From: Enterobacteria phage RB18
Sequence record: NC_054906.1
Length of the DNA: 64,000 nucleotides
Direction: 5' to 3' (one strand)
Shown here: piece by piece, positions 3,901-56,623 of the stretch
How positions within the stretch are numbered: the first letter of the stretch is position 1
How the letters are laid out: each line of letters begins with the position of its first letter
Notes under the pieces: model-generated
What the model was told of the DNA's origin: nothing
What the model saw: only the letters and a program-made list of their open reading frames with translations
Databases searched by the model: none
Position numbers and translations under genes: made by a program

Positions 3901-4145
3901 TGGAAGGTTTAATTGAAGCTATTAAATCAAACGACCTCGTAGCCGCTCGTAAATTATTTGCTGAAGCCATGGCTGCAAGAACGATTGATTTAATTAAAGA
4001 AGAAAAAATCGCTATCGCTCGTAATTTCTTAATCGAAGGTGAAGAACCTGATGACGAGGATGATGACGAAGACGAAGACGAAGATAGTGATGATAAAGAC
4101 GACAAAAAAGACAAAGACTCTGACGAAGACGAGGATGATGAATAA
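3900..4145 (+). CDS. 67: Prohead core protein gp67 with acidic D/E-rich C-terminal tail
   Basis: TAATG overlap with gene 20 stop; 81 aa; poly-Asp/Glu tail; synteny. Confidence 0.88.
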
Positions 4146-7632: not shown

Positions 7633-7658
7633 TCTCTAACGATAGAAACACAATTTTA

Positions 7659-7682
7659 GGGAACCTTCGGGTTCCCTTTTTC
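7659..7682. terminator. Bidirectional terminator GGGAACC-TTCG-GGTTCCC + T6 between convergent genes 23 and segD
   Basis: 7-bp GC stem, UUCG tetraloop, T-run. Confidence 0.85.
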
Positions 7683-8344
7683 TATTTTATACGATAGCAA
7701 TCAGGCATATCATCCGCATTTATCCAATTGCGAATAGTTTTAGGACTAACTTTAAAATGCTCCGCTGCGTAATCAGGATTATCAAATTTAACGCCCTTTA
7801 TACATATTGGAATAAATTTTTTAATACCACCAAGTTTTTCAGAAATAGCTTTACGATGTGAAATCGATATAGGTTTATTTTTTCGTGGATGAACATGTGT
7901 TTTATAATATTCATTGCGCCCTTTAACTCGCTTCGCAATAGTTTCATCAGATTGCTTAACGCCTGTTTTTGCCTTTGATATTTTTCGTTTAGCTTCCACA
8001 GTCATTCCTTCTTTTGTTCGTATTGATAACATATTACGATATGAAGGATCTTGCAAATGAACTATAACTGGATTTCCTCTGCCACCAATAGCAGCATTAT
8101 AGGTATCAGTTCTCATAACGAATTCCTCATTGACTAGTAAAGCTTCCATTTTATACATCTCCTCAGATGAGGAGAAAGAATAAAGAATTTCTTTTTTAAA
8201 GTTATGAATACCATATTTTTTGATGGATTTTTTGATGTTTACGCCAGAACCCATATAACCATCGTTTTCGTCAAGAGTAGCATGAGCTCCGATGTAAATT
8301 TTTCCATTGATGATATTAGTAATTTGATATATTAAATATTTCAT
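7682..8344 (-). CDS. segD: GIY-YIG homing-endonuclease-like protein (seg family), at the T4 segD position between genes 23 and 24
   Basis: MKYLIYQITNIINGKIYIGAH GIY-YIG motif near N-terminus; start taken at third ATG (8344), best spaced from GGAG; track ORF extends to 8383. Confidence 0.75.
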   Translation of the reverse strand: MKYLIYQITNIINGKIYIGAHATLDENDGYMGSGVNIKKSIKKYGIHNFKKEILYSFSSSEEMYKMEALLVNEEFVMRTDTYNAAIGGRGNPVIVHLQDPSYRNMLSIRTKEGMTVEAKRKISKAKTGVKQSDETIAKRVKGRNEYYKTHVHPRKNKPISISHRKAISEKLGGIKKFIPICIKGVKFDNPDYAAEHFKVSPKTIRNWINADDMPDCYRIK

Positions 8345-23346: not shown

Positions 23347-23350
23347 CAAT

Positions 23351-23368
23351 GGGGACCGAAAGGTCCCC
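23351..23368. terminator. Terminator GGGGACC-GAAA-GGTCCCC between gene 54 and alt.-3-like gene
   Basis: 7-bp stem, GAAA loop, flanking T/A runs. Confidence 0.8.
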
Positions 23369-23374
23369 ATATTT

Positions 23375-23665
23375 TTATTTACGGAATGAAATAAAAGCAG
23401 CAACTGAAGCAACAGAGGTTTCTTCAATATAAACTTCAATTTTTACCGGAGCTTCTGACTCAAATTTACCTGTTACTACACCCTGAAAAATACTTTCAGT
23501 CTGTTCTGGCTTTGAAAAATTTTCAGAAGGAAAAATTCCGAACTTTTTATCTGTTCCAAAAATTTTAATAAATTCATCGTAAACTGCTTCATTAAAAGCA
23601 TTATCAGCAGGAATAACGCCTTCAACTACAAGTTCTTGACCTAAAAAGCGCAAAGAAGATTTCAT
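23375..23665 (-). CDS. Hypothetical protein (96 aa, T4 alt.-3 position)
   Basis: ATG start with GAGGA SD; preceded by conserved 54-bp leader element. Confidence 0.7.
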   Translation of the reverse strand: MKSSLRFLGQELVVEGVIPADNAFNEAVYDEFIKIFGTDKKFGIFPSENFSKPEQTESIFQGVVTGKFESEAPVKIEVYIEETSVASVAAFISFRK

Positions 23666-23672
23666 TTTGTGT

Positions 23673-23726
23673 TCCTCATGTTATGTCAGTAAGACTACTA
23701 TAACACAATATGAGGGACTTGTAAAC
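23673..23726 (-). repeat. 54-bp leader element, copy A (early-type promoter GTTTAC-N18-TATAGT plus leader stem-loop) upstream of alt.-3-like gene
   Basis: 51 of 54 identical to 38812-38865; -35 at 23721-23726 overlaps stop of Alt paralog. Confidence 0.7.
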
Positions 23727-25783
23727 TACATTTTGAACTTTTTAGACATTCCGTTGATGTTAACCAAAGAAGCTAAGATTTGAGAAACTTCGTTTTCCTC
23801 TTCTTTTGATTCTTCTACAAGGAATTGATTAAATCCAGCCATTGGACGAACTTCTCCGGTTTCCATTAGATAGTCACCATCATATACTGATTCTTCTAAT
23901 TGTTCAGAAGGAGGAACGATTGTACCTTCGATTAGATACTTGTTATAAGCAGTTTCTTTCATAAAGTAAGTACTTACTTTATTAATCTTCAGTAAAATTC
24001 CACGCGGTAGAATAACTTCAGCTTCTGATGGAAATCCTGTTAAATGACCTGGAACGATAACTTTGATTCGCTCAGCTCCTTTAATTACCATACCCACGCT
24101 AGTTTCAGCATCTTCATTAGCATATGTAGAATGACTACCCATATGCATCAAATCTTCTGCATCAACAGAACCTTCTCCTTCACCAGAAAATACTGCGCCG
24201 GAATCATCTAGAGCCATATAGTTTTTACCATGCTCACCGAAGATATTTGGTTTAAGTGATGTCGATACGAAGTTCTTGAAATAGAACATTTTGTTTTCAA
24301 TGTTATGACGCAAAGTTTTAAAGGTAACTTCTTGTCCACGATAAAGCGTAGTTCCTGGAGGAAGAACTGAACCTTTAGCGAATGCAGAATCCAACGTCTC
24401 GATGTGCTTAATAGCTCGTTCCATATATTCTTCACGGGTAGAATCTGGTTTACCCAAAAGGAACGAGTTCATTTCAACATATGAATCTGCACAATAATCT
24501 TCAATTACATCAGATTCAGCTTGAGTTAATCCTTTTGGAGTTACTTCGGTGCTTGCGTATTCATATGCCTGAGCAGCAGATTCATTAATCAATTTATAAA
24601 TGCCATTCATGACAAATTGAATAATAGCTGTCTTTTCATCTGGCGTAGCTTTAGAACCTTTAACCAAATCATTGATAATTTTCTTAATAACATCAAAGCT
24701 ATTAGAAATATTAATATCAGCAAGATCGCTTAAAATTTTATCAGTTTTATAATCAAAGAATTCTTTATTCTTTAAATATTCTTGAGAACCTTGATATGTT
24801 ATATCGCTCTGCAACTTGATGGATGGATCACGTAAACGTGCATGGGCTAATGCAATATGATTTCGGAAGTTTTCTAGTTCATAATCGCTAGATTTAAAAC
24901 GAGAAGCACTCCTCATACCACCGATAGCTCCTTTGTTGAAGTTTGAACCAATCTGAATAACGCCAGAGTTCATTGGTCCTTCTGCTTTATATACCGGAAC
25001 TTTGGATTCAAACTCTTGATATTTCTTAGCAGCGAAGCTATCACCCTGAAGTGAAGCATCAACAGTAGAATATTGAGCTTGTGCTGCTAATCGACGACTA
25101 ATTTTAGTTTTCTGAATAACAGCTTGGTCAGTGCGCTTATCATTTTCTAAAGCAATAGAAGCAGCAACTGCGACAGCTTTAGGAACAGCATTACCTGTTT
25201 TAACGTCTACATAAACATCACCAACCTTTGATTCAACTTTTGTGAATAACTCAGCTGAAATAGGAGGTACACCTGGAATGTCTTCTAAATTGGCATTTTT
25301 ACGGTAAACCATAATATATGCATATTTCTTATCATAGTCCCAGATTTCCTTTAAAAGAACATATCGGCCTGCTCCTTTAGTACGTACTAAACGGTCAGCA
25401 ATAACTTGCATTTGACGAGCAGCGCCATTTGTTTTACTCTTTAGTACGCGGAATAAGCATGCATCAATTTTATACTGTTTCATTGTTTGAAGAGCAGTAT
25501 CAAAAACAGCATTAATGACGCCAATTGGATTTCCACCCAAGTTTTTAAGCTTAACTAATGATAGTTTCTCATTAACACCTATCATTACGATATGCATCAT
25601 TTTGTCGCCTGGCTTAACGTTTTTATTCGTATCACCGCCAGAGGTGTATGTACAAAATCTAAATCCGGGGAGAACGCTTTCTTCACCGGCTTGAATAGCA
25701 AAAATTTGTGGTATTTTATGCTTAGGATTTAAGTTAACAACCGGCGCCGAAGCGCCGTCAAATAATTCTGTAATAAGTTCCAT
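23726..25783 (-). CDS. Alt-like mono-ADP-ribosyltransferase paralog (685 aa), intact
   Basis: N-terminus MELITELFDG identical in type to Alt; C-terminal R (LYRGQ), STS (FVSTSL) and EAEV motifs; diverged central region. Confidence 0.85.
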   Translation of the reverse strand: MELITELFDGASAPVVNLNPKHKIPQIFAIQAGEESVLPGFRFCTYTSGGDTNKNVKPGDKMMHIVMIGVNEKLSLVKLKNLGGNPIGVINAVFDTALQTMKQYKIDACLFRVLKSKTNGAARQMQVIADRLVRTKGAGRYVLLKEIWDYDKKYAYIMVYRKNANLEDIPGVPPISAELFTKVESKVGDVYVDVKTGNAVPKAVAVAASIALENDKRTDQAVIQKTKISRRLAAQAQYSTVDASLQGDSFAAKKYQEFESKVPVYKAEGPMNSGVIQIGSNFNKGAIGGMRSASRFKSSDYELENFRNHIALAHARLRDPSIKLQSDITYQGSQEYLKNKEFFDYKTDKILSDLADINISNSFDVIKKIINDLVKGSKATPDEKTAIIQFVMNGIYKLINESAAQAYEYASTEVTPKGLTQAESDVIEDYCADSYVEMNSFLLGKPDSTREEYMERAIKHIETLDSAFAKGSVLPPGTTLYRGQEVTFKTLRHNIENKMFYFKNFVSTSLKPNIFGEHGKNYMALDDSGAVFSGEGEGSVDAEDLMHMGSHSTYANEDAETSVGMVIKGAERIKVIVPGHLTGFPSEAEVILPRGILLKINKVSTYFMKETAYNKYLIEGTIVPPSEQLEESVYDGDYLMETGEVRPMAGFNQFLVEESKEEENEVSQILASLVNINGMSKKFKM

Positions 25784-25786
25784 GAT

Positions 25787-27883
25787 TTATCCTTGAACGA
25801 ACTTGTAAGGCATGTTTGTAATATCTATGCAAGACGCAATAATTCCAAGAGATGATTCTACTTTCTGTTTAACATTTGATGAAACAAATGATGCAAAGTC
25901 AACTCTGTCTTCTATTTCAATATCACCTGTCATTGCAACCAATTCACCAGTTTCCATTAAATGGTCTCCGTCATAGATTACCGATTCGGTGAGTTCTTCG
26001 GTGGTCATAACTTCAGCTTGAATGAGTTTTGTATTATTAGACGTGGTTCCGTCATTATTAGAAGCATCAGTTATTTTATTAACTTTGACCATCAATCCGC
26101 GCGGTAGAATAACTTCAGCTTCTGTTGCTATTCCGAGATTTCCTGGATATACAACATTAACTTTATGAGCTCCATCAATTGCCCATCCTATTTGAACTTT
26201 AACGTATTCAGGATTTTCTTTATACGCTCTTATTTCGCTTGGATTAATAGTTATTCCTTCTTCATTTTTATCAACTGTCAATTCATTACGAGCTTCTGGT
26301 TCTAAAAGACCAATACCAGCATGTGTAATTCCAAAACGTCCAAAAATGATAGGAGTTAAAGAAGTAGATACAAAATTTCTGAAATAGAACACTTTATTTT
26401 TAACTAGTGCTTCGTATATAGGAGCAGTCATACTTTGAGCACGATAAACTGTGATGCCTTCCGGTATGCGGTCACCATTTTCAAAAGCTGAATCTAAGTT
26501 ATTTATAGCAGATTCAATTTCTTTTTCACTCATTACATCATATCGTTCTGGATTGTAACGACCTAAAAGAAGATTATTGATGTCAGTATATCCTGAACCG
26601 CAATATTCTCTAATGCCACGCTTTTGTGATGGAGTATATTTAGAACCATCGCGGGCAATAGTAATATCAATCATTGGACCAGCACCAATTCCAGAAAAAC
26701 TGTAAATCATTCGTTTGAGGAATTTAGTTTTTGCTGCGTTCCAGGAATTTTTAGTTATTTCTTCCCAGACTTCATCTGGTTGTCCTTTACGATTTTTATT
26801 ATGATTAGCAAGCCATTTATCTTTATAATCTTCAAAGAATTGATTTACAGCTGCTGCGTATTTCTCTAAACATTTTATTGAAGTAGTTGGTTCATTTTTA
26901 ATTGCATTAAAAATTACTTCTTTAATTTTTTCTGAAACTTCACCGACTTGACTCATTGGAAAGAATTTATAATCATAGTGAAGTTCATCTGCCGTTCCTT
27001 CAGCAATAATTTTTGCTGCCTTTGTTTTAGAAGCTAATGAATTAATTCCAATTTTCATTTCTTCTGCTTCGGGAATTAAAGGTGCAGTAGCTGGTTTATT
27101 AAAATTAGCTGCTGTAGATTCATACTTCTGGAATAATTCACTTTCAAATCTAGAAGATTCCAATGACTGACTTTGTGCAATTGCTCTACGGGAAATTTTA
27201 ACTTTAACGATTACAGCTTGGTCAGAACGTTTATCATTTTCTTGCGCAATAGATGCTGCAATTGCCTCATTTTTAGTTACTTGGGCTCCAGTATCTTTAT
27301 TGATATAAACATCACCGACTTTCGATTCAACTTTAGTAAAGAGCTCGGTACTAATTTCCGGAACTCCTGGAATGTCTTCTAGTGATACATTTTTGCGATG
27401 TATAAGAATATATGCATACTTTTTATCGTAATCCCAGAGTTCCTTAAGAAGGACGTATCTACCACCTGAACGACTACGGATAAGTCTATCAGCAATAACT
27501 TGAATTTGTCGAGCTTGGCCAGCAGTTTTAGACTTAAGAATACGAAGCATACAAGCATCAATTTTATATTGACGCATTGTTTGCATTGCAACAGTAAAAA
27601 CTGAATTGATATAATTAATCGGGCTTGGACCAAGACCTTTTAATTTGGCAATTGAACCTTTAGCAGTTAATGTAAAAGGAACAATATGCATCATTTTATC
27701 GCCCATCTTTAAATCGCGATTAGTATCACCTCCAGATGTATAGGTACATAAACGAAAGCCTGGTTGTTCAATTGCATCATCAACATGAACTGAAAAAATT
27801 TGTGGTATTTTCTTCTTTGGATTTAAGTTTGTAATCGGAAGAGTAGTATCTTCGTCAAATAATTCTGTAATAAGTTCCATCAT
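25787..27883 (-). CDS. alt: Alt ADP-ribosyltransferase, packaged internal head protein (697-698 aa)
   Basis: MELITELFDEDTTLPITNLNPKK N-terminus; VYRAQ / FVSTSL / TEAEV ART motifs; TATAAATA upstream; adjacent to gene 30 as in T4. Confidence 0.92.
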   Translation of the reverse strand: MMELITELFDEDTTLPITNLNPKKKIPQIFSVHVDDAIEQPGFRLCTYTSGGDTNRDLKMGDKMMHIVPFTLTAKGSIAKLKGLGPSPINYINSVFTVAMQTMRQYKIDACMLRILKSKTAGQARQIQVIADRLIRSRSGGRYVLLKELWDYDKKYAYILIHRKNVSLEDIPGVPEISTELFTKVESKVGDVYINKDTGAQVTKNEAIAASIAQENDKRSDQAVIVKVKISRRAIAQSQSLESSRFESELFQKYESTAANFNKPATAPLIPEAEEMKIGINSLASKTKAAKIIAEGTADELHYDYKFFPMSQVGEVSEKIKEVIFNAIKNEPTTSIKCLEKYAAAVNQFFEDYKDKWLANHNKNRKGQPDEVWEEITKNSWNAAKTKFLKRMIYSFSGIGAGPMIDITIARDGSKYTPSQKRGIREYCGSGYTDINNLLLGRYNPERYDVMSEKEIESAINNLDSAFENGDRIPEGITVYRAQSMTAPIYEALVKNKVFYFRNFVSTSLTPIIFGRFGITHAGIGLLEPEARNELTVDKNEEGITINPSEIRAYKENPEYVKVQIGWAIDGAHKVNVVYPGNLGIATEAEVILPRGLMVKVNKITDASNNDGTTSNNTKLIQAEVMTTEELTESVIYDGDHLMETGELVAMTGDIEIEDRVDFASFVSSNVKQKVESSLGIIASCIDITNMPYKFVQG

Positions 27884-27903: not shown

Positions 27904-27911
27904 TATTTATA
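27904..27911 (-). promoter_or_regulatory. Late promoter TATAAATA on minus strand (alt)
   Basis: Forward TATTTATA, about 20 nt upstream of alt ATG. Confidence 0.7.
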
Positions 27912-27917
27912 AAATTA

Positions 27918-27934
27918 AAGGCCCGAAGGCCTTT
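27918..27934 (-). terminator. Hairpin AAGGCC-CGAA-GGCCTT after gene 30 operon
   Basis: GC stem with CGAA loop. Confidence 0.55.
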
Positions 27935-28121
27935 AATAATCTAGTGGTAAGAGAGTACGGTATATTTCAAACTTTGGACCTTTTTCATAGGCATCAAATG
28001 TTTCTGTGAATTTATTATAAGCATATGCATCTACAAATTCGAGAATGACTTGTGATACAGAAGTAGAAACATCTCCACCTTCTTTTTGAGCAATGACAAT
28101 TGTTTCTAAGTAAGCTTTCAT
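27933..28121 (-). CDS. Small hypothetical protein (62 aa)
   Basis: ATG start overlapping gene 30 stop; hairpin downstream. Confidence 0.55.
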   Translation of the reverse strand: MKAYLETIVIAQKEGGDVSTSVSQVILEFVDAYAYNKFTETFDAYEKGPKFEIYRTLLPLDY

Positions 28122-31859: not shown

Positions 31860-32225
31860 TTAAATATCAAATTCGTTAAGAACTACATCAAAGATTGCTT
31901 CAAGATGCTCAGGTTTAGCTCTGTTACTCAGAATATGACGAATCCAAGTTTTAACCAAAAGCTTGCGATTAACGCCATTCCAGCAAGGATGAGTCCCTAA
32001 ATCGCGTTCACGGAAATCATCATCCAGAGCGATTTTAAAGTTGGAACCTTCCATCGTGATTGAAACCGTGATACCGTTTTCAAATCGCATATAAACGTAA
32101 TTAGGAGTCATATACTGCTCAATTTCGCATACTGATCCATTTTGATGTTTCCAGAGGCAAATAGTATCAATAGAACCTGCAATACCATTAGAAACATATT
32201 TACGTTCAAAGTTAATGTAGTTCAT
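31860..32225 (-). CDS. Hypothetical protein (121 aa)
   Basis: Track start is TTG 32237; first ATG 32225 preceded by GGAG; early-type promoter upstream. Confidence 0.6.
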   Translation of the reverse strand: MNYINFERKYVSNGIAGSIDTICLWKHQNGSVCEIEQYMTPNYVYMRFENGITVSITMEGSNFKIALDDDFRERDLGTHPCWNGVNRKLLVKTWIRHILSNRAKPEHLEAIFDVVLNEFDI

Positions 32226-32250
32226 TTTATTCTCCAAGATGTTTAATTGC

Positions 32251-32290
32251 GGTACAGGTATATAATATCATATCCTGTACCAAAGTAAAC
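32251..32290 (-). promoter_or_regulatory. Early-type promoter GTTTAC-N17-TATTAT with 8-bp inverted repeat (GGTACAGG / CCTGTACC) centred on the -10
   Basis: -35 = rc of 32285-32290; -10 = rc of 32262-32267; IR arms 32251-32258 and 32274-32281. Confidence 0.6.
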
Positions 32291-32292
32291 AA

Positions 32293-32625
32293 TTATTTTA
32301 CTACTTTCCAATGCTGCATGTCAAGTTTACCAACTTTTTTCATCTTCTCAATTAAGCGTTCGGCACGTTGGCGAGCTGTAACATAATACCATTCACCTAA
32401 TTCATTTTGTTCAATTTTTCCAACGATTACTGTATTCAATTCATAAATCCAACCAGTAAAGAAATTATGAACTTGAATTGTAAAGGTGAAATCTGTTCCC
32501 ATACCTTCTGTTGTTTCTACTTCAATAATATCACCTTCAACTGCCATTAAGAACCACATAGTTTCATCATATTTACCATTGAAGCATTTAGTTTTAACTG
32601 TAGCGTTCAGATTAATCGTTTTCAT
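32293..32625 (-). CDS. Hypothetical protein (110 aa)
   Basis: ATG start; early-type promoter 32653-32682 upstream. Confidence 0.6.
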   Translation of the reverse strand: MKTINLNATVKTKCFNGKYDETMWFLMAVEGDIIEVETTEGMGTDFTFTIQVHNFFTGWIYELNTVIVGKIEQNELGEWYYVTARQRAERLIEKMKKVGKLDMQHWKVVK

Positions 32626-32652
32626 TTTATTCTCCTTTGTTTGTGTAAGATA

Positions 32653-32682
32653 ATACTATCACAAAGGAACCATACTGTAAAC
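32653..32682 (-). promoter_or_regulatory. Early-type promoter GTTTAC-N18-TAGTAT
   Basis: -35 = rc of 32677-32682; -10 = rc of 32653-32658. Confidence 0.55.
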
Positions 32683-35264: not shown

Positions 35265-35500
35265 AGTACGCCATACACCCTTTGTGCTTCAACTAATCCA
35301 TCAAAATCCAATTTGAGATGTGTTATTTGATCACCATCACCTGGATTCACAATTACTAATACTGAACGAGGAGTTTCGGTAATAACACGAACTGATGTTT
35401 CAGGAAATCGTTCAGAAACCTTATTTACCAATTCCTGTGCAAATAGCTTAACTTTTTCTTGGAATTCTTTAACAGTAATCGGTTTTTCACTTAGCAGCAT
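35261..35500 (-). CDS. Hypothetical protein (79 aa)
   Basis: ATG with GAGGAAAA SD; early-type promoter upstream. Confidence 0.6.
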   Translation of the reverse strand: MLLSEKPITVKEFQEKVKLFAQELVNKVSERFPETSVRVITETPRSVLVIVNPGDGDQITHLKLDFDGLVEAQRVYGVL

Positions 35501-35520
35501 TTTGTTTTCCTCATTTGTTT

Positions 35521-35559
35521 GGTAGAGCTATAATATCACAACTCTACCGTAAAGTAAAC
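35521..35559 (-). promoter_or_regulatory. Early-type promoter GTTTAC-N18-TATTAT with 7-bp inverted repeat (GGTAGAG / CTCTACC) centred on the -10
   Basis: -35 = rc of 35554-35559; -10 = rc of 35530-35535; IR arms 35521-35527 and 35542-35548. Confidence 0.6.
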
Positions 35560-37960: not shown

Positions 37961-38310
37961 TTAGAAAGGTCCTGGATGTCTTCTGCGAACTTGTTGAAGG
38001 AGTTGTTGATTTGTTTTTCAACCAATCCTGGCTTATGAGCCACCACATCCGCCTTCTTTGCGTCTTTGCGCAGCTTTTCATTTTCACGCTCAATAGCAGC
38101 AATTGCCTCACGATTTTTATTATTCATCGCATCAATATAATTATACTGAATTCGCAAATTATTTAATGCTAAAGCGTTTTCATTGGCCGTTTTTGTAATT
38201 TCTACAACAGACGTTTCTAATCTTTCAATTTTATTTTTTAAAATTAAAGAAGTTCCGCCCAATGCAATTACAATTAATAACAAGCCTGCTGTCGTATTAC
38301 TTAATTGCAT
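37957..38310 (-). CDS. Inner-membrane spanin (i-spanin, Rz-like; T4 pseT.3 equivalent)
   Basis: N-terminal transmembrane helix followed by coiled-coil region. Confidence 0.75.
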   Translation of the reverse strand: MQLSNTTAGLLLIVIALGGTSLILKNKIERLETSVVEITKTANENALALNNLRIQYNYIDAMNNKNREAIAAIERENEKLRKDAKKADVVAHKPGLVEKQINNSFNKFAEDIQDLSK

Positions 38311-38804
38311 AAAGTTTTAATAACCTCTATAATATCGTCTTGAGAAAGACCGTTAATTAAAATATGATGTTCAGCCGGAGATTTAGAAATTTTAAAGCAT
38401 GCCTCAACATCTTCTGCCATATCCGATGCACTACGATTTGGATTACTAATACCAAGGCGGTGTTTTCCCGTCAAAGGATTAACGATGATATAGCATTTGC
38501 AGCTATTGATATGAACATTGGGTTGAGTCTGATTAATGAACACTTCACAATCATACTTAGCGAGTTGATTTTCTAAAAAGACTTTCATCTCTTCAACCGC
38601 ATCAGGAAGCATATCACGGGCTTGCTCAAGACGACGATTTCGATATTCTTTAATGGTCGTTTTCCGCTTGACTTGCTTTGCTAAATCTTTCTTAAGATCG
38701 GTGATATATCCAACTCGACGATTTCCTTTGAATACAGAAATCCCATCTGTAGTATCACCGTATGCTTCAACGACCATTTCAGTAGTAATAAGCTGTAAAT
38801 CCAT
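38301..38804 (-). CDS. alc: Alc, inhibitor of host transcription (167 aa)
   Basis: Two adjacent ATGs; second better spaced from GAGGA; 54-bp leader element upstream. Confidence 0.85.
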   Translation of the reverse strand: MDLQLITTEMVVEAYGDTTDGISVFKGNRRVGYITDLKKDLAKQVKRKTTIKEYRNRRLEQARDMLPDAVEEMKVFLENQLAKYDCEVFINQTQPNVHINSCKCYIIVNPLTGKHRLGISNPNRSASDMAEDVEACFKISKSPAEHHILINGLSQDDIIEVIKTLCN

Positions 38805-38811
38805 CATAAAG

Positions 38812-38865
38812 TCCTCATGTTATGTCAGTAAGACTACTGTAACACAACACGAGGGACTTGTAAAC
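38812..38865 (-). repeat. 54-bp leader element, copy B (GTTTAC-N18-TACAGT plus leader stem-loop) upstream of alc
   Basis: 51 of 54 identical to copy A at 23673-23726. Confidence 0.7.
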
Positions 38866-38868
38866 AGC

Positions 38869-40456
<1,588 letters not shown>

Positions 40457-55476: not shown

Positions 55477-56592
55477 ATGGAAAAATTTATGGCAGAGTTT
55501 GGACAAGGATATGTCCAAACACCATTTTTATCGGAAAGTAATTCAGTAAGATATAAAATAAGTATAGCGGGTTCTTGTCCGCTTTCTACCGCAGGACCGT
55601 ATGTTAAATTTCAGGATAATCCTGTAGGAAGTCAAACATTTAGCGCAGGTCTTCATTTAAGAGTTTTTGACCCTTCCACCGGAGCATTAGTTGATAGTAA
55701 GTCATATGCTTTTTCGACTTCAAATGATACTACATCAGCTGCTTTTGTTAGTTTCATGAATTCTTTGACGAATAATCGAATTGTTGCTATATTAACTAGT
55801 GGAAAGGTTAATTTTCCTCCTGAAGTAGTATCTTGGTTAAGAACCGCAGGAACGTCTGCCTTTCCATCTGACTCTATATTGTCAAGATTTGACGTATCAT
55901 ATGCTGCTTTTTATACTTCTTCTAAAAGAGCTATTGCATTAGAGCATGTTAAACTGAGTAACAGAAAAAGCACAGATGACTATCAAACTATTTTAGATGT
56001 TGTATTTGACAGTTTAGAAGACGTCGGAGCTACCGGGTTTCCAAGAAGAACGTATGAAAGCGTTGAGCAATTTATGTCAGCGGTTGGTGGAACTAATAAC
56101 GAAATTGCGCGTCTACCAACTTCAGCTGCTATAAGTAAACTCTCTGATTATAATTTAATTCCTGGTGATGTTCTTTATCTTAAAGCACAGTTATATGCTG
56201 ATGCTGATTTACTTGCTCTTGGAACTACAAATATATCTATCCGTTTTTATAATGCATCTAATGGATATATTTCCTCGACACAAGCTGAGTTTACTGGACA
56301 AGCTGGGTCATGGGAATTAAAGGAAGATTATGTAGTTGTTCCAGAAAACGCAGTAGGATTTACGATATATGCACAAAGAACTGCACAAGCTGGTCAAGGC
56401 GGCATGAGAAATTTAAGTTTTTCTGAAGTATCAAGAAACGGCGGCATTTCAAAACCTGCTGAATTTGGCGTCAATGGTATTCGTGTTAATTATATCTGTG
56501 AATCTGCTTCACCTCCGGATATAATGGTACTTCCTACACAAGCATCGTCTAAAACTGGTAAAGTGTTTGGGCAAGAATTTAGAGAAGTATAA
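55477..56592 (+). CDS. 35: Long tail fiber hinge connector gp35
   Basis: 371 aa; synteny 34-35-36-37. Confidence 0.9.
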   Translation: MEKFMAEFGQGYVQTPFLSESNSVRYKISIAGSCPLSTAGPYVKFQDNPVGSQTFSAGLHLRVFDPSTGALVDSKSYAFSTSNDTTSAAFVSFMNSLTNNRIVAILTSGKVNFPPEVVSWLRTAGTSAFPSDSILSRFDVSYAAFYTSSKRAIALEHVKLSNRKSTDDYQTILDVVFDSLEDVGATGFPRRTYESVEQFMSAVGGTNNEIARLPTSAAISKLSDYNLIPGDVLYLKAQLYADADLLALGTTNISIRFYNASNGYISSTQAEFTGQAGSWELKEDYVVVPENAVGFTIYAQRTAQAGQGGMRNLSFSEVSRNGGISKPAEFGVNGIRVNYICESASPPDIMVLPTQASSKTGKVFGQEFREV

Positions 56593-56597
56593 ATTGA

Positions 56598-56620
56598 GGG
56601 AGCCTTCGGGTTCCCTTTTT
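56598..56620 (+). terminator. Terminator GGGAGCC-TTCG-GGTTCCC + T5 after gene 35
   Basis: 7-bp stem (one G-U), UUCG loop, T-run. Confidence 0.8.
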
Positions 56621-56623
56621 CTT

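Follow-up and report, generated by a model that had tools for sequence, protein, structure and literature searches.

The locus and its neighbours

The DNA analysed here, referred to as the window, is a 64,000-nucleotide stretch of Enterobacteria phage RB18 (NC_054906.1) that belongs to Tequatrovirus and is 97–98% identical to T6-like and T4-like phages. It harbours two copies of a 54-nt element, both on the minus strand: copy A lies upstream of alt.-3 and copy B upstream of alc. A repeat search of the window found the copies to be identical at 51/54 positions (94%) and 15139 bases apart, in agreement with a first-pass annotation of this DNA that had reported 51/54 identity to the alc leader some 15 kb away. 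A search for further copies, which the same annotation had proposed, retrieved only these two sites in the window at up to three mismatches, against 0 expected from 100 shuffles. Read 5′ to 3′ on the minus strand, copy A is GTTTACAAGTCCCTCATATTGTGTTATAGTAGTCTTACTGACATAACATGAGGA and copy B is GTTTACAAGTCCCTCGTGTTGTGTTACAGTAGTCTTACTGACATAACATGAGGA, and the shared stretch is sharply bounded, extending from the G of GTTTAC to the last A of GAGGA. The elements and the genes that flank them are as follows.

23673–23726, minus strand: copy A, 54-nt early promoter/leader cassette upstream of alt.-3 (repeat and mismatch search)
38812–38865, minus strand: copy B, same cassette upstream of alc (repeat and mismatch search)
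23375–23665, minus strand: alt.-3, 96 aa, the gene served by copy A (RB51/RB32 annotation, T4 alt.-3, Pfam DUF5498)
23726–25783, minus strand: Alt-like ADP-ribosyltransferase paralogue, upstream of copy A
38301–38807, minus strand: alc, served by copy B; inhibits host transcription (Pfam ALC)
38869–39993, minus strand: rnlA (gene 63), upstream of copy B

The first G of copy A is the final G of the TAG stop codon of the Alt-like ORF, and 7 nt separate the end of the copy from the ATG of alt.-3. The TAA stop codon of rnlA sits 3 nt ahead of copy B. Both copies are present in T4 (NC_000866), at 123040–123093 (A) and 136283–136336 (B), where they differ by a single base. Two sites per genome are found in approximately 500 database phages, Tequatrovirus relatives of T4, and transition-tolerant pattern scans of IMG/VR and metagenomes added approximately 20 more copies.

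The region upstream of copy A accommodates two full-length Alt-like ADP-ribosyltransferase genes in tandem on the minus strand (23726–25783, 685 aa, and 25787–27883, 698 aa), whose nucleotide identity of ∼70% is distributed in blocks. T4 keeps mere remnants (alt.-1 and alt.-2) of the second Alt-like copy, and its alt.-2 ORF stops at a TAG within the -10 box of copy A. Repeats of a different kind occupy 4041–4141 of the window: periodic GAC/GAA/GAT units of 9 and 12 nt that presumably encode an acidic low-complexity protein segment.

Promoter and leader anatomy

With p1 assigned to the G of GTTTAC, the -35 hexamer TTTACA occupies p2–7 and is followed by a 17-nt spacer (p8–24), which ends in a TGn motif (p22–24), and by the -10 box (p25–30). 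A promoter scan and a separate scan describe copy A as GTTTACA-17-TGT-TATAGT and copy B as GTTTACA-17-TGT-TACAGT. The early-type minus-strand promoter claimed in the first-pass annotation is thus upheld, with TTTACA-17-TA(T/C)AGT and TG in both copies, and the occurrence of the same promoter anatomy at both loci bears out its suggestion of a shared promoter module. The predicted start is A37, which corresponds to T4 positions 123057 (A) and 136300 (B). The Shine–Dalgarno sequence (SD) GAGGA lies at p50–54 within a leader of 25 nt; the alt.-3 ATG follows GAGGA at 7 nt, and alc displays two ATGs, at 4 and 7 nt. The individual parts map to these positions.

23720–23726, minus strand: copy A, -35 region GTTTACA, T4 early-type (promoter scan)
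23697–23702, minus strand: copy A, -10 box TATAGT (promoter scan)
23690, minus strand: copy A, predicted transcription start, the A of CTTAC, 7 nt past the -10 box (from geometry)
23673–23677, minus strand: copy A, Shine–Dalgarno sequence GAGGA
38859–38864, minus strand: copy B, -35 hexamer TTTACA
38836–38841, minus strand: copy B, -10 box TACAGT
38829, minus strand: copy B, predicted transcription start
38812–38816, minus strand: copy B, Shine–Dalgarno sequence GAGGA

Almost every early cassette examined, in the window and in other genera, shows a similar geometry: the predicted start is an A in most, and leaders measure 21–25 nt in most and 14–37 nt overall. The CTTAC/TCTAC start context also recurs in early cassettes of other genera. 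Upstream of the -35 hexamer copy A displays the A/T-rich, UP-like sequence AAAAAGTTCAAAATGTA, and the corresponding sequence of copy B, CCCAGAAGGATACTAAGCT, is not A/T-rich. Judged by its sequence, the element is a T4-type early (sigma-70) promoter–leader cassette.

Two families of published T4-type elements resemble it. The first is the PeSL, which is made up of a stop codon, an early promoter with an embedded stem-loop, an SD and an ATG (PMC2839356; PMC4122927). Copies A and B follow the same course, from a stop codon to an early promoter with an overlapping stem-loop and on to SD and ATG, and a genome likewise contains several similar PeSLs, which act as substrates for recombination (Arbiol et al. 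2010; Comeau et al. 2014). Relative to the PST/T4 consensus TTTACW-N17-TAYWAT, the -10 box matches at 5/6 positions in copy A (TATAGT) and at 4/6 in copy B (TACAGT). The second family consists of the T4 ‘uber’ promoters with UP, -35, TGn and -10 elements (Hinton 2010, PMC2988021), with which the copies share the -35, the TGn, the -10, the 17-nt spacer and the association with early genes; however, a UP-like region can be seen at copy A and not clearly at copy B, and the -10 boxes are imperfect.

Expression timing and expected read-through

In published T4 time-course data alt is a late gene, its RNA being assigned to 7 min and its protein to 8 min, whereas both alt.-3 and alc are early as RNA and as protein. 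As alt.-3 lies directly downstream of alt without a gap and yet is early, it needs an early promoter of its own, for which the 54-nt element is the sole candidate. The published T4 list contains no middle promoters at alc, alt.-3 or rnlA.

27904–27911, minus strand: late-promoter motif TATAAATA just upstream of alt (motif search)
23349–23370, no strand assigned: terminator-like hairpin, two-way, which closes the transcription unit between alt.-3 and gene 54

The terminator scan of the window detected no terminator between the alt genes and copy A. Given this result and the late motif upstream of alt, late read-through into copy A is to be expected. The Alt-like ORF is the likely source of such late RNA, and we infer that rnlA is the source of read-through RNA into copy B.

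At 27904–27935 (minus strand), upstream of alt, a further terminator-like hairpin (AGGCCTTCGGGCCT then T's) comes first and the late-promoter motif TATAAATA directly after it. Elsewhere in the window, 7644–7683 and 56583–56622 constitute a 40-nt repeat with 85% identity, comprising a G/C-rich hairpin and a T-tract (GGGAACCTTCGGGTTCCCTTTTTCT), that looks like a reused intrinsic terminator.

A predicted hairpin that pairs the promoter spacer with the Shine–Dalgarno sequence

Nearly the whole element is predicted to fold into a single interrupted hairpin of ∼22 bp, in which p14–24 pair with p41–51 and p27–31 with p36–40 around a loop at p32–35; the additional pairing of p7–12 with p52–57 is complete in copy B alone. 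The arms, as placed by folding, are the following.

23696–23719, minus strand: copy A, 5′ arm, comprising the 17-nt spacer, TGn and the -10 box
23671–23691, minus strand: copy A, 3′ arm, including the SD
38835–38859, minus strand: copy B, 5′ arm, comprising the last -35 base, the spacer, TGn and the -10 box
38809–38830, minus strand: copy B, 3′ arm, including the SD

The predicted fold energy is -29 kcal/mol for copy B (z = -4.9) and -17.2 kcal/mol for copy A (z = -2.3), and both hairpins survive in 221-nt contexts, in the MFE as well as the centroid fold. A stem-loop overlapping GAGGA had been proposed earlier as a structure of the leader. The palindrome is real, is larger than described and does overlap GAGGA; its location in the leader needs correction, as the 5′ arm consists of spacer and -10 box and lies upstream of the predicted start. 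With the arm in this position, only read-through RNA arriving from alt or rnlA could fold the hairpin. RNA beginning at the predicted start of the cassette itself folds at -3.5 and -4.6 kcal/mol, no better than shuffles (z ∼0). For copy B, the SD region has a predicted mean unpaired probability of 0.07 in read-through RNA against 0.60 in own-promoter RNA; for copy A the values are 0.20 and 0.42, respectively. A value as low as that of the copy B read-through RNA is reached in 0.01 of shuffled pre-start segments. The three differences between the copies, which had been singled out for a folding and covariation check, all fall at paired positions and each alters one side of its pair only (A-U/G.U, A.C/G-C and U.G/C-G), and they offer no covariation.

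Spacer complementarity to downstream RNA is not confined to the two copies: it is significant in 5 of the 10 early-type promoters of the window. At the promoter with its -35 near 32681 (32620–32681, minus strand), CCTTTG pairs with the SD CAAAGG (p = 0.014). The promoters with a -35 near 35558 (35495–35558, minus strand; GGTAGAG/CTCTACC) and near 32289 (32220–32289, minus strand; GGTACAGG/CCTGTACC) pair with a segment just past the -10 box and not with the SD (p ≤ 0.002 for each).

Variation within Tequatrovirus

We compared 32 Tequatrovirus copies, each with different flanking sequence, and found the variants to be single transitions. Of the 6 kinds of stem substitution in copy B, 5 preserve pairing, the remaining one affecting the terminal pair; in copy A, 4 of 7 kinds keep pairing and three break it (p12, p18 and p29). 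The p27–p40 pair occurs as C-G, U.G and U-A, each of which is one step from U.G. Two-sided covariation is absent from these Tequatrovirus substitutions, and the ratio of pair-keeping to pair-breaking changes is near the expectation for neutral transitions. Evidence for the hairpin from within the genus is therefore weak, and the weaker fold of copy A together with its pair-breaking variants suggests that the hairpin may not matter at alt.-3.

Across the genus copies A and B have the same consensus, and in several genomes they are identical at 54/54 positions. Nucleotide diversity of the element amounts to 0.042 for copy A and 0.024 for copy B. Third codon positions show 0.092 in alt.-3 and 0.075 in alc, and first and second positions 0.002–0.011. 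Diversity of the element is thus 2–3 times below that of third codon positions and comparable in size to the A/B difference, so that a 3/54 difference needs no special explanation. The first-pass annotation had read the high identity as a sign of selection. The diversity values do point to moderate purifying selection, stronger at alc; the identity by itself indicates no unusual selection, the reduction being only two- to threefold.

Spacer–SD pairing at alc in other genera

The picture becomes clearer beyond Tequatrovirus. A profile search of IMG/VR with the Alc alignment yielded 38 distinct alc-upstream cassettes. Counting as paired those with a duplex at or below -15 kcal/mol, 23 of the 38 form a duplex of -15 to -24 kcal/mol between pre-start segment and leader; shuffled pre-start segments give about -8 ± 2.5 kcal/mol, and for most cassettes 0/300 are as good. 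In the pairing cassettes the 3′ arm always includes the SD and stops 1–7 nt short of the ATG, and the helices in other genera measure 10–17 bp. Pairing between spacer and SD upstream of alc is found in at least eight lineages whose arm sequences are unlike, for example TCTCCATTTGGTT / AACCAAATGGAGA in Karamvirus and Moonvirus, TCCTCATTTTGTTG / CAACAAAATGAGGA in one further contig, TCCTCATCAG / CTGATGAGGA in Klebsiella phages, TCTCCTCATG / CATGAGGAGA in Dhakavirus, and ACCTCTCATTTT / AAAATGAGAGGT, CCTCTCGTTTTTG / CAAAAACGAGAGG, CCTCGTTTGTT / AACAAACGAGG and TCCTCATTTCGTT / AACGAAATGAGGA in four other classes. In Aeromonas phage 31 and Gualtarvirus Rgz1 the SD is buried by an arm located right after the -10 box, which still ends at or just past the predicted start. 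Among the alc cassettes compared, SD pairing is absent in Mosigvirus and several other lineages.

A whole-cassette MAFFT alignment put the arms out of register, and an energy matrix and an arm-only alignment were used instead. In the matrix of nine arm classes, each with one representative, cognate duplexes average -20.3 kcal/mol against -10.8 for non-cognate combinations; the cognate partner is the best in 8/9 rows and 9/9 columns, a result equalled in 0/20000 permutations. Indexed by promoter position, 13 of the 17 helix columns at alc contain compensatory differences. In the arm-only alignment, in which the arms were cut in a structure-informed register and joined by artificial linkers, 88.5% of cells are paired against 63.7% after shuffling (0/500), both sides have changed in 11/13 pairs, and the covariation score is 0.668 against 0.229 (0/500). 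Shifting the partner by 1–3 columns lowers the paired fraction to 41–58%. These comparisons support the view that spacer–SD pairing at alc has been kept through compensatory change across genera. We found no earlier description of such covariation-backed pairing, which is what the present analysis adds.

In two IMG/VR T4-like contigs a canonical intrinsic terminator (AAGGGG...CCCCTT then T's) is located between the upstream gene and alc, and the alc SD of the same contigs nevertheless retains partial pairing, with a segment immediately past the -10 box.

The element is also an inverted repeat in duplex DNA and might act at that level, as a cruciform or as the site of a dimeric protein centred on the -10 box, or else serve as the operator of a translational repressor. 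Sense and antisense strands fold about equally well in most genera, Tequatrovirus alc being the exception, so that energy alone does not discriminate against a DNA-level palindrome. The arms, however, vary by lineage without loss of pairing, which speaks for base-pairing as the conserved property and against a fixed sequence read by a protein; loops of 12–25 nt disfavour cruciforms; and at Tequatrovirus alc the sense RNA is the more stable by 8–9 kcal/mol, owing to G.U pairs. Any of these roles is very improbable as the explanation.

An RNA-processing site, which like a translational operator was among the roles suggested in the first-pass annotation, can be given slightly more credit and is still highly doubtful; RNase III, for instance, might cut a long stem between cistrons. 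The interrupted helix of copy B, ∼22 bp, is long enough for RNase III, but the shorter helices of the other genera fit poorly with such a role, and Rfam covariance models find no match over either copy at E up to 1. Cleavage by RegB does not fit either: GGAG, which the T4 enzyme requires within the SD of an early mRNA, is absent from the SD regions GAGGAA and GAGGAC (AUGAGGAAC and AUGAGGACU).

Origin of the two copies

Outgroup alt.-3 loci were compared in Dhakavirus, Marfavirus, Kagamiyamavirus, Karamvirus and Mosigvirus. In these genera alt.-3 is preceded by a different cassette (GTTTACAACACCACAAGGATGTGGTACTAT...), which has a small hairpin within the spacer and no SD pairing. At alc the SD-pairing type is present in four of the five, namely Dhakavirus, Marfavirus or F48-like contigs, Kagamiyamavirus and Karamvirus, and not in Mosigvirus. 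As the outgroup alt.-3 carries a different cassette, copying would have proceeded from alc to alt.-3: by parsimony, the Tequatrovirus ancestor probably had its alt.-3 promoter replaced by a copy of the alc cassette. A haplotype characterized by p11T, p15T and p16A (GTTCCTTATG) is found at copy A in some Tequatrovirus genomes and at copy B in others; its presence at both loci indicates occasional (ectopic) exchange between the copies, as the PeSL model predicts. With two copies per genome, a haplotype common to both loci and a replaced alt.-3 cassette type, the element behaves as the recombining copies of that model do. A fairly recent copy event, occasional exchange and moderate purifying selection would together explain the high identity of A and B.

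An origin from a MITE-like mobile element was considered and rejected: there are no target-site duplications, and the outgroups have a cassette of the same length at the same place.

Cassettes related in part occur elsewhere. In the Shigella phage Shf125875 (Mosigvirus) the leader of ndd.1 has the stretch from the -10 box to the ATG in common with copy A (TATAGTAGTCcTACTGA-ACATGAGGAACACAAAATG), a likeness that includes 10 nt past the A/B boundary; the spacer differs, which gives the cassettes a mosaic appearance with the junction close to the -10 box. A second recurrent cassette, in which a CCACA-AGGA-TGTGG spacer hairpin is followed by TACTAT, is present at alt.-3 in several genera and at alc in Mosigvirus. 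Upstream of rnlA, window positions 40015–40046 contain the similar CCACA-TGGAA-TGTGG-TACTAT, preceded by a MotA-box-like TGCTTC.

The history of alt.-3 also bears on a rival reading of the repeat, namely that only the promoter counts, that the alt.-3 hairpin is functionless and that the likeness reflects a recent copy and ordinary purifying selection on promoter and SD. The common consensus at both loci and the match between A/B difference and within-locus diversity accord with it, as do the three pair-breaking changes of copy A, its diversity at twice that of copy B, and the lack of SD pairing in the outgroup alt.-3 cassettes. It leaves unaccounted for, however, the covariation at alc, and it sits uneasily with the retention of pairing by all but the terminal-pair kind of stem substitution in copy B. 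We regard a promoter-only explanation as a serious contender that is nonetheless unlikely.

Terminators, PeSLs and genes with an internal late promoter

In the PeSL papers the stem-loop figures as a terminator or attenuator, and neither translation nor SD pairing is brought up. By analogy, the stem-loop of copies A and B might terminate or attenuate upstream transcripts or stabilise their 3′ ends, burial of the SD being incidental. One PeSL stem-loop reduced expression of a downstream lacZ to roughly the same extent as rrnB T1 did, and PeSL stem-loops are located between -35 and -10 or over the -10 (Arbiol et al. 2010, PMC2839356). The early promoters with a -35 near 35558 and 32289, whose spacer hairpins place the 3′ arm near +1 and not on the SD, are in keeping with such a role, and the copy B tail CUUUAUGAU is moderately U-rich. 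On the other hand, copy A is followed by no U-tract (GGAACACAAAAUG), and the alc cassettes of other genera have an A-rich stretch there; the terminator scan of the window includes neither copy; and the combination of G/C-rich stem and U-tract that defines an intrinsic terminator is lacking, the tails being AACACAAAAUG and CUUUAUGAUG. The PeSL stems tested previously are G/C-rich (GGGG...CCCC), unlike those of copies A and B, and the PST PeSL stems are drawn just upstream of the promoter, whereas in copies A and B the SD itself serves as the 3′ arm. Moreover, termination gives no reason for the presence of the SD in the 3′ arm of at least eight independent arm sequences. We thus hold a terminator, attenuator or stabiliser to be rather improbable.

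A further parallel is provided by the T4 genes e, soc, 49 and I-TevI. There, long upstream transcripts fold the SD and/or AUG into a helix, and a proximal promoter within the DNA of the 5′ strand gives rise to transcripts that are devoid of this strand and are translated (Uzan and Miller 2010, PMC3014915). Copies A and B are alike in that the SD is predicted to be paired in read-through RNA. From the geometry, transcription at the copies would start in or after the loop, and the resulting RNA is predicted to be unstructured. In e, soc, 49 and I-TevI, however, a late internal promoter (TATAAATA) goes with silencing of early or middle RNAs, whereas copies A and B have an early sigma-70 promoter, and a motif search found the late motif in neither copy. 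With an early internal promoter and silenced RNAs that are middle or late, the timing would be reversed. Neither alc nor alt.-3 is among the cases in the review by Uzan and Miller (PMC3014915). Whether start-site gating here is a time-reversed counterpart of e, soc, 49 and I-TevI, and with it a PeSL function absent from the PeSL papers, is in our estimation evenly balanced.

Translational coupling by a hairpin that ribosomes open is familiar from classical RNA-phage and operon examples. At both copies the anti-SD arm lies close 3′ of the upstream stop codon, which recalls this arrangement: the arm starts 7–12 nt 3′ of that codon, and in copy A and in many genera the codon is a TAG that shares its G with GTTTAC. 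A ribosome terminating 7–12 nt upstream could open the stem, and the outcome would then be coupling rather than silencing. In contrast with coupled genes, alc and alt.-3 each have their own promoter, which gives a predicted open SD.

A proposed mechanism and its meaning

The reading we prefer, and consider rather probable, is that the early promoter has a spacer with a second role as anti-SD strand, which leaves freely translatable only those transcripts that begin at this promoter. RNA reading through, late from alt in the case of copy A and from rnlA in that of copy B, would fold and bury the SD. RNA begun at the promoter of the cassette would be devoid of the 5′ arm and would leave the SD free. 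As a result alc, with alt.-3 as a passenger, would likely be translated efficiently from its own early transcripts only, and middle or late read-through RNA would be silent, or else translated once a ribosome ending at the adjacent upstream stop had opened the stem. In this scheme we infer the start site, the read-through RNA and the translational effect from sequence and folding.

T4 serves as the standard model of temporal control in phage gene expression, and its early protein synthesis is known to be ended through RegB cleavage, RegA repression and promoter shut-off. A duplicated early cassette is, as such, of a known kind, occurs in T4 itself and is ordinary; if the hairpin had no effect, the element would amount only to a duplicated early promoter. 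There is about an even chance that T4-like phages possess, at early genes, a ribosome-binding site gated by the transcription start, in which the point where the mRNA begins sets its translatability and the cassette acts as a temporal insulator. If true, this would be a purely cis-acting addition to the known routes: one and the same DNA would serve as early promoter and as translation off-switch for later transcripts. PeSL stem-loops would gain a testable translational role, and a single cassette would have moved between unrelated genes, carrying its regulation along.
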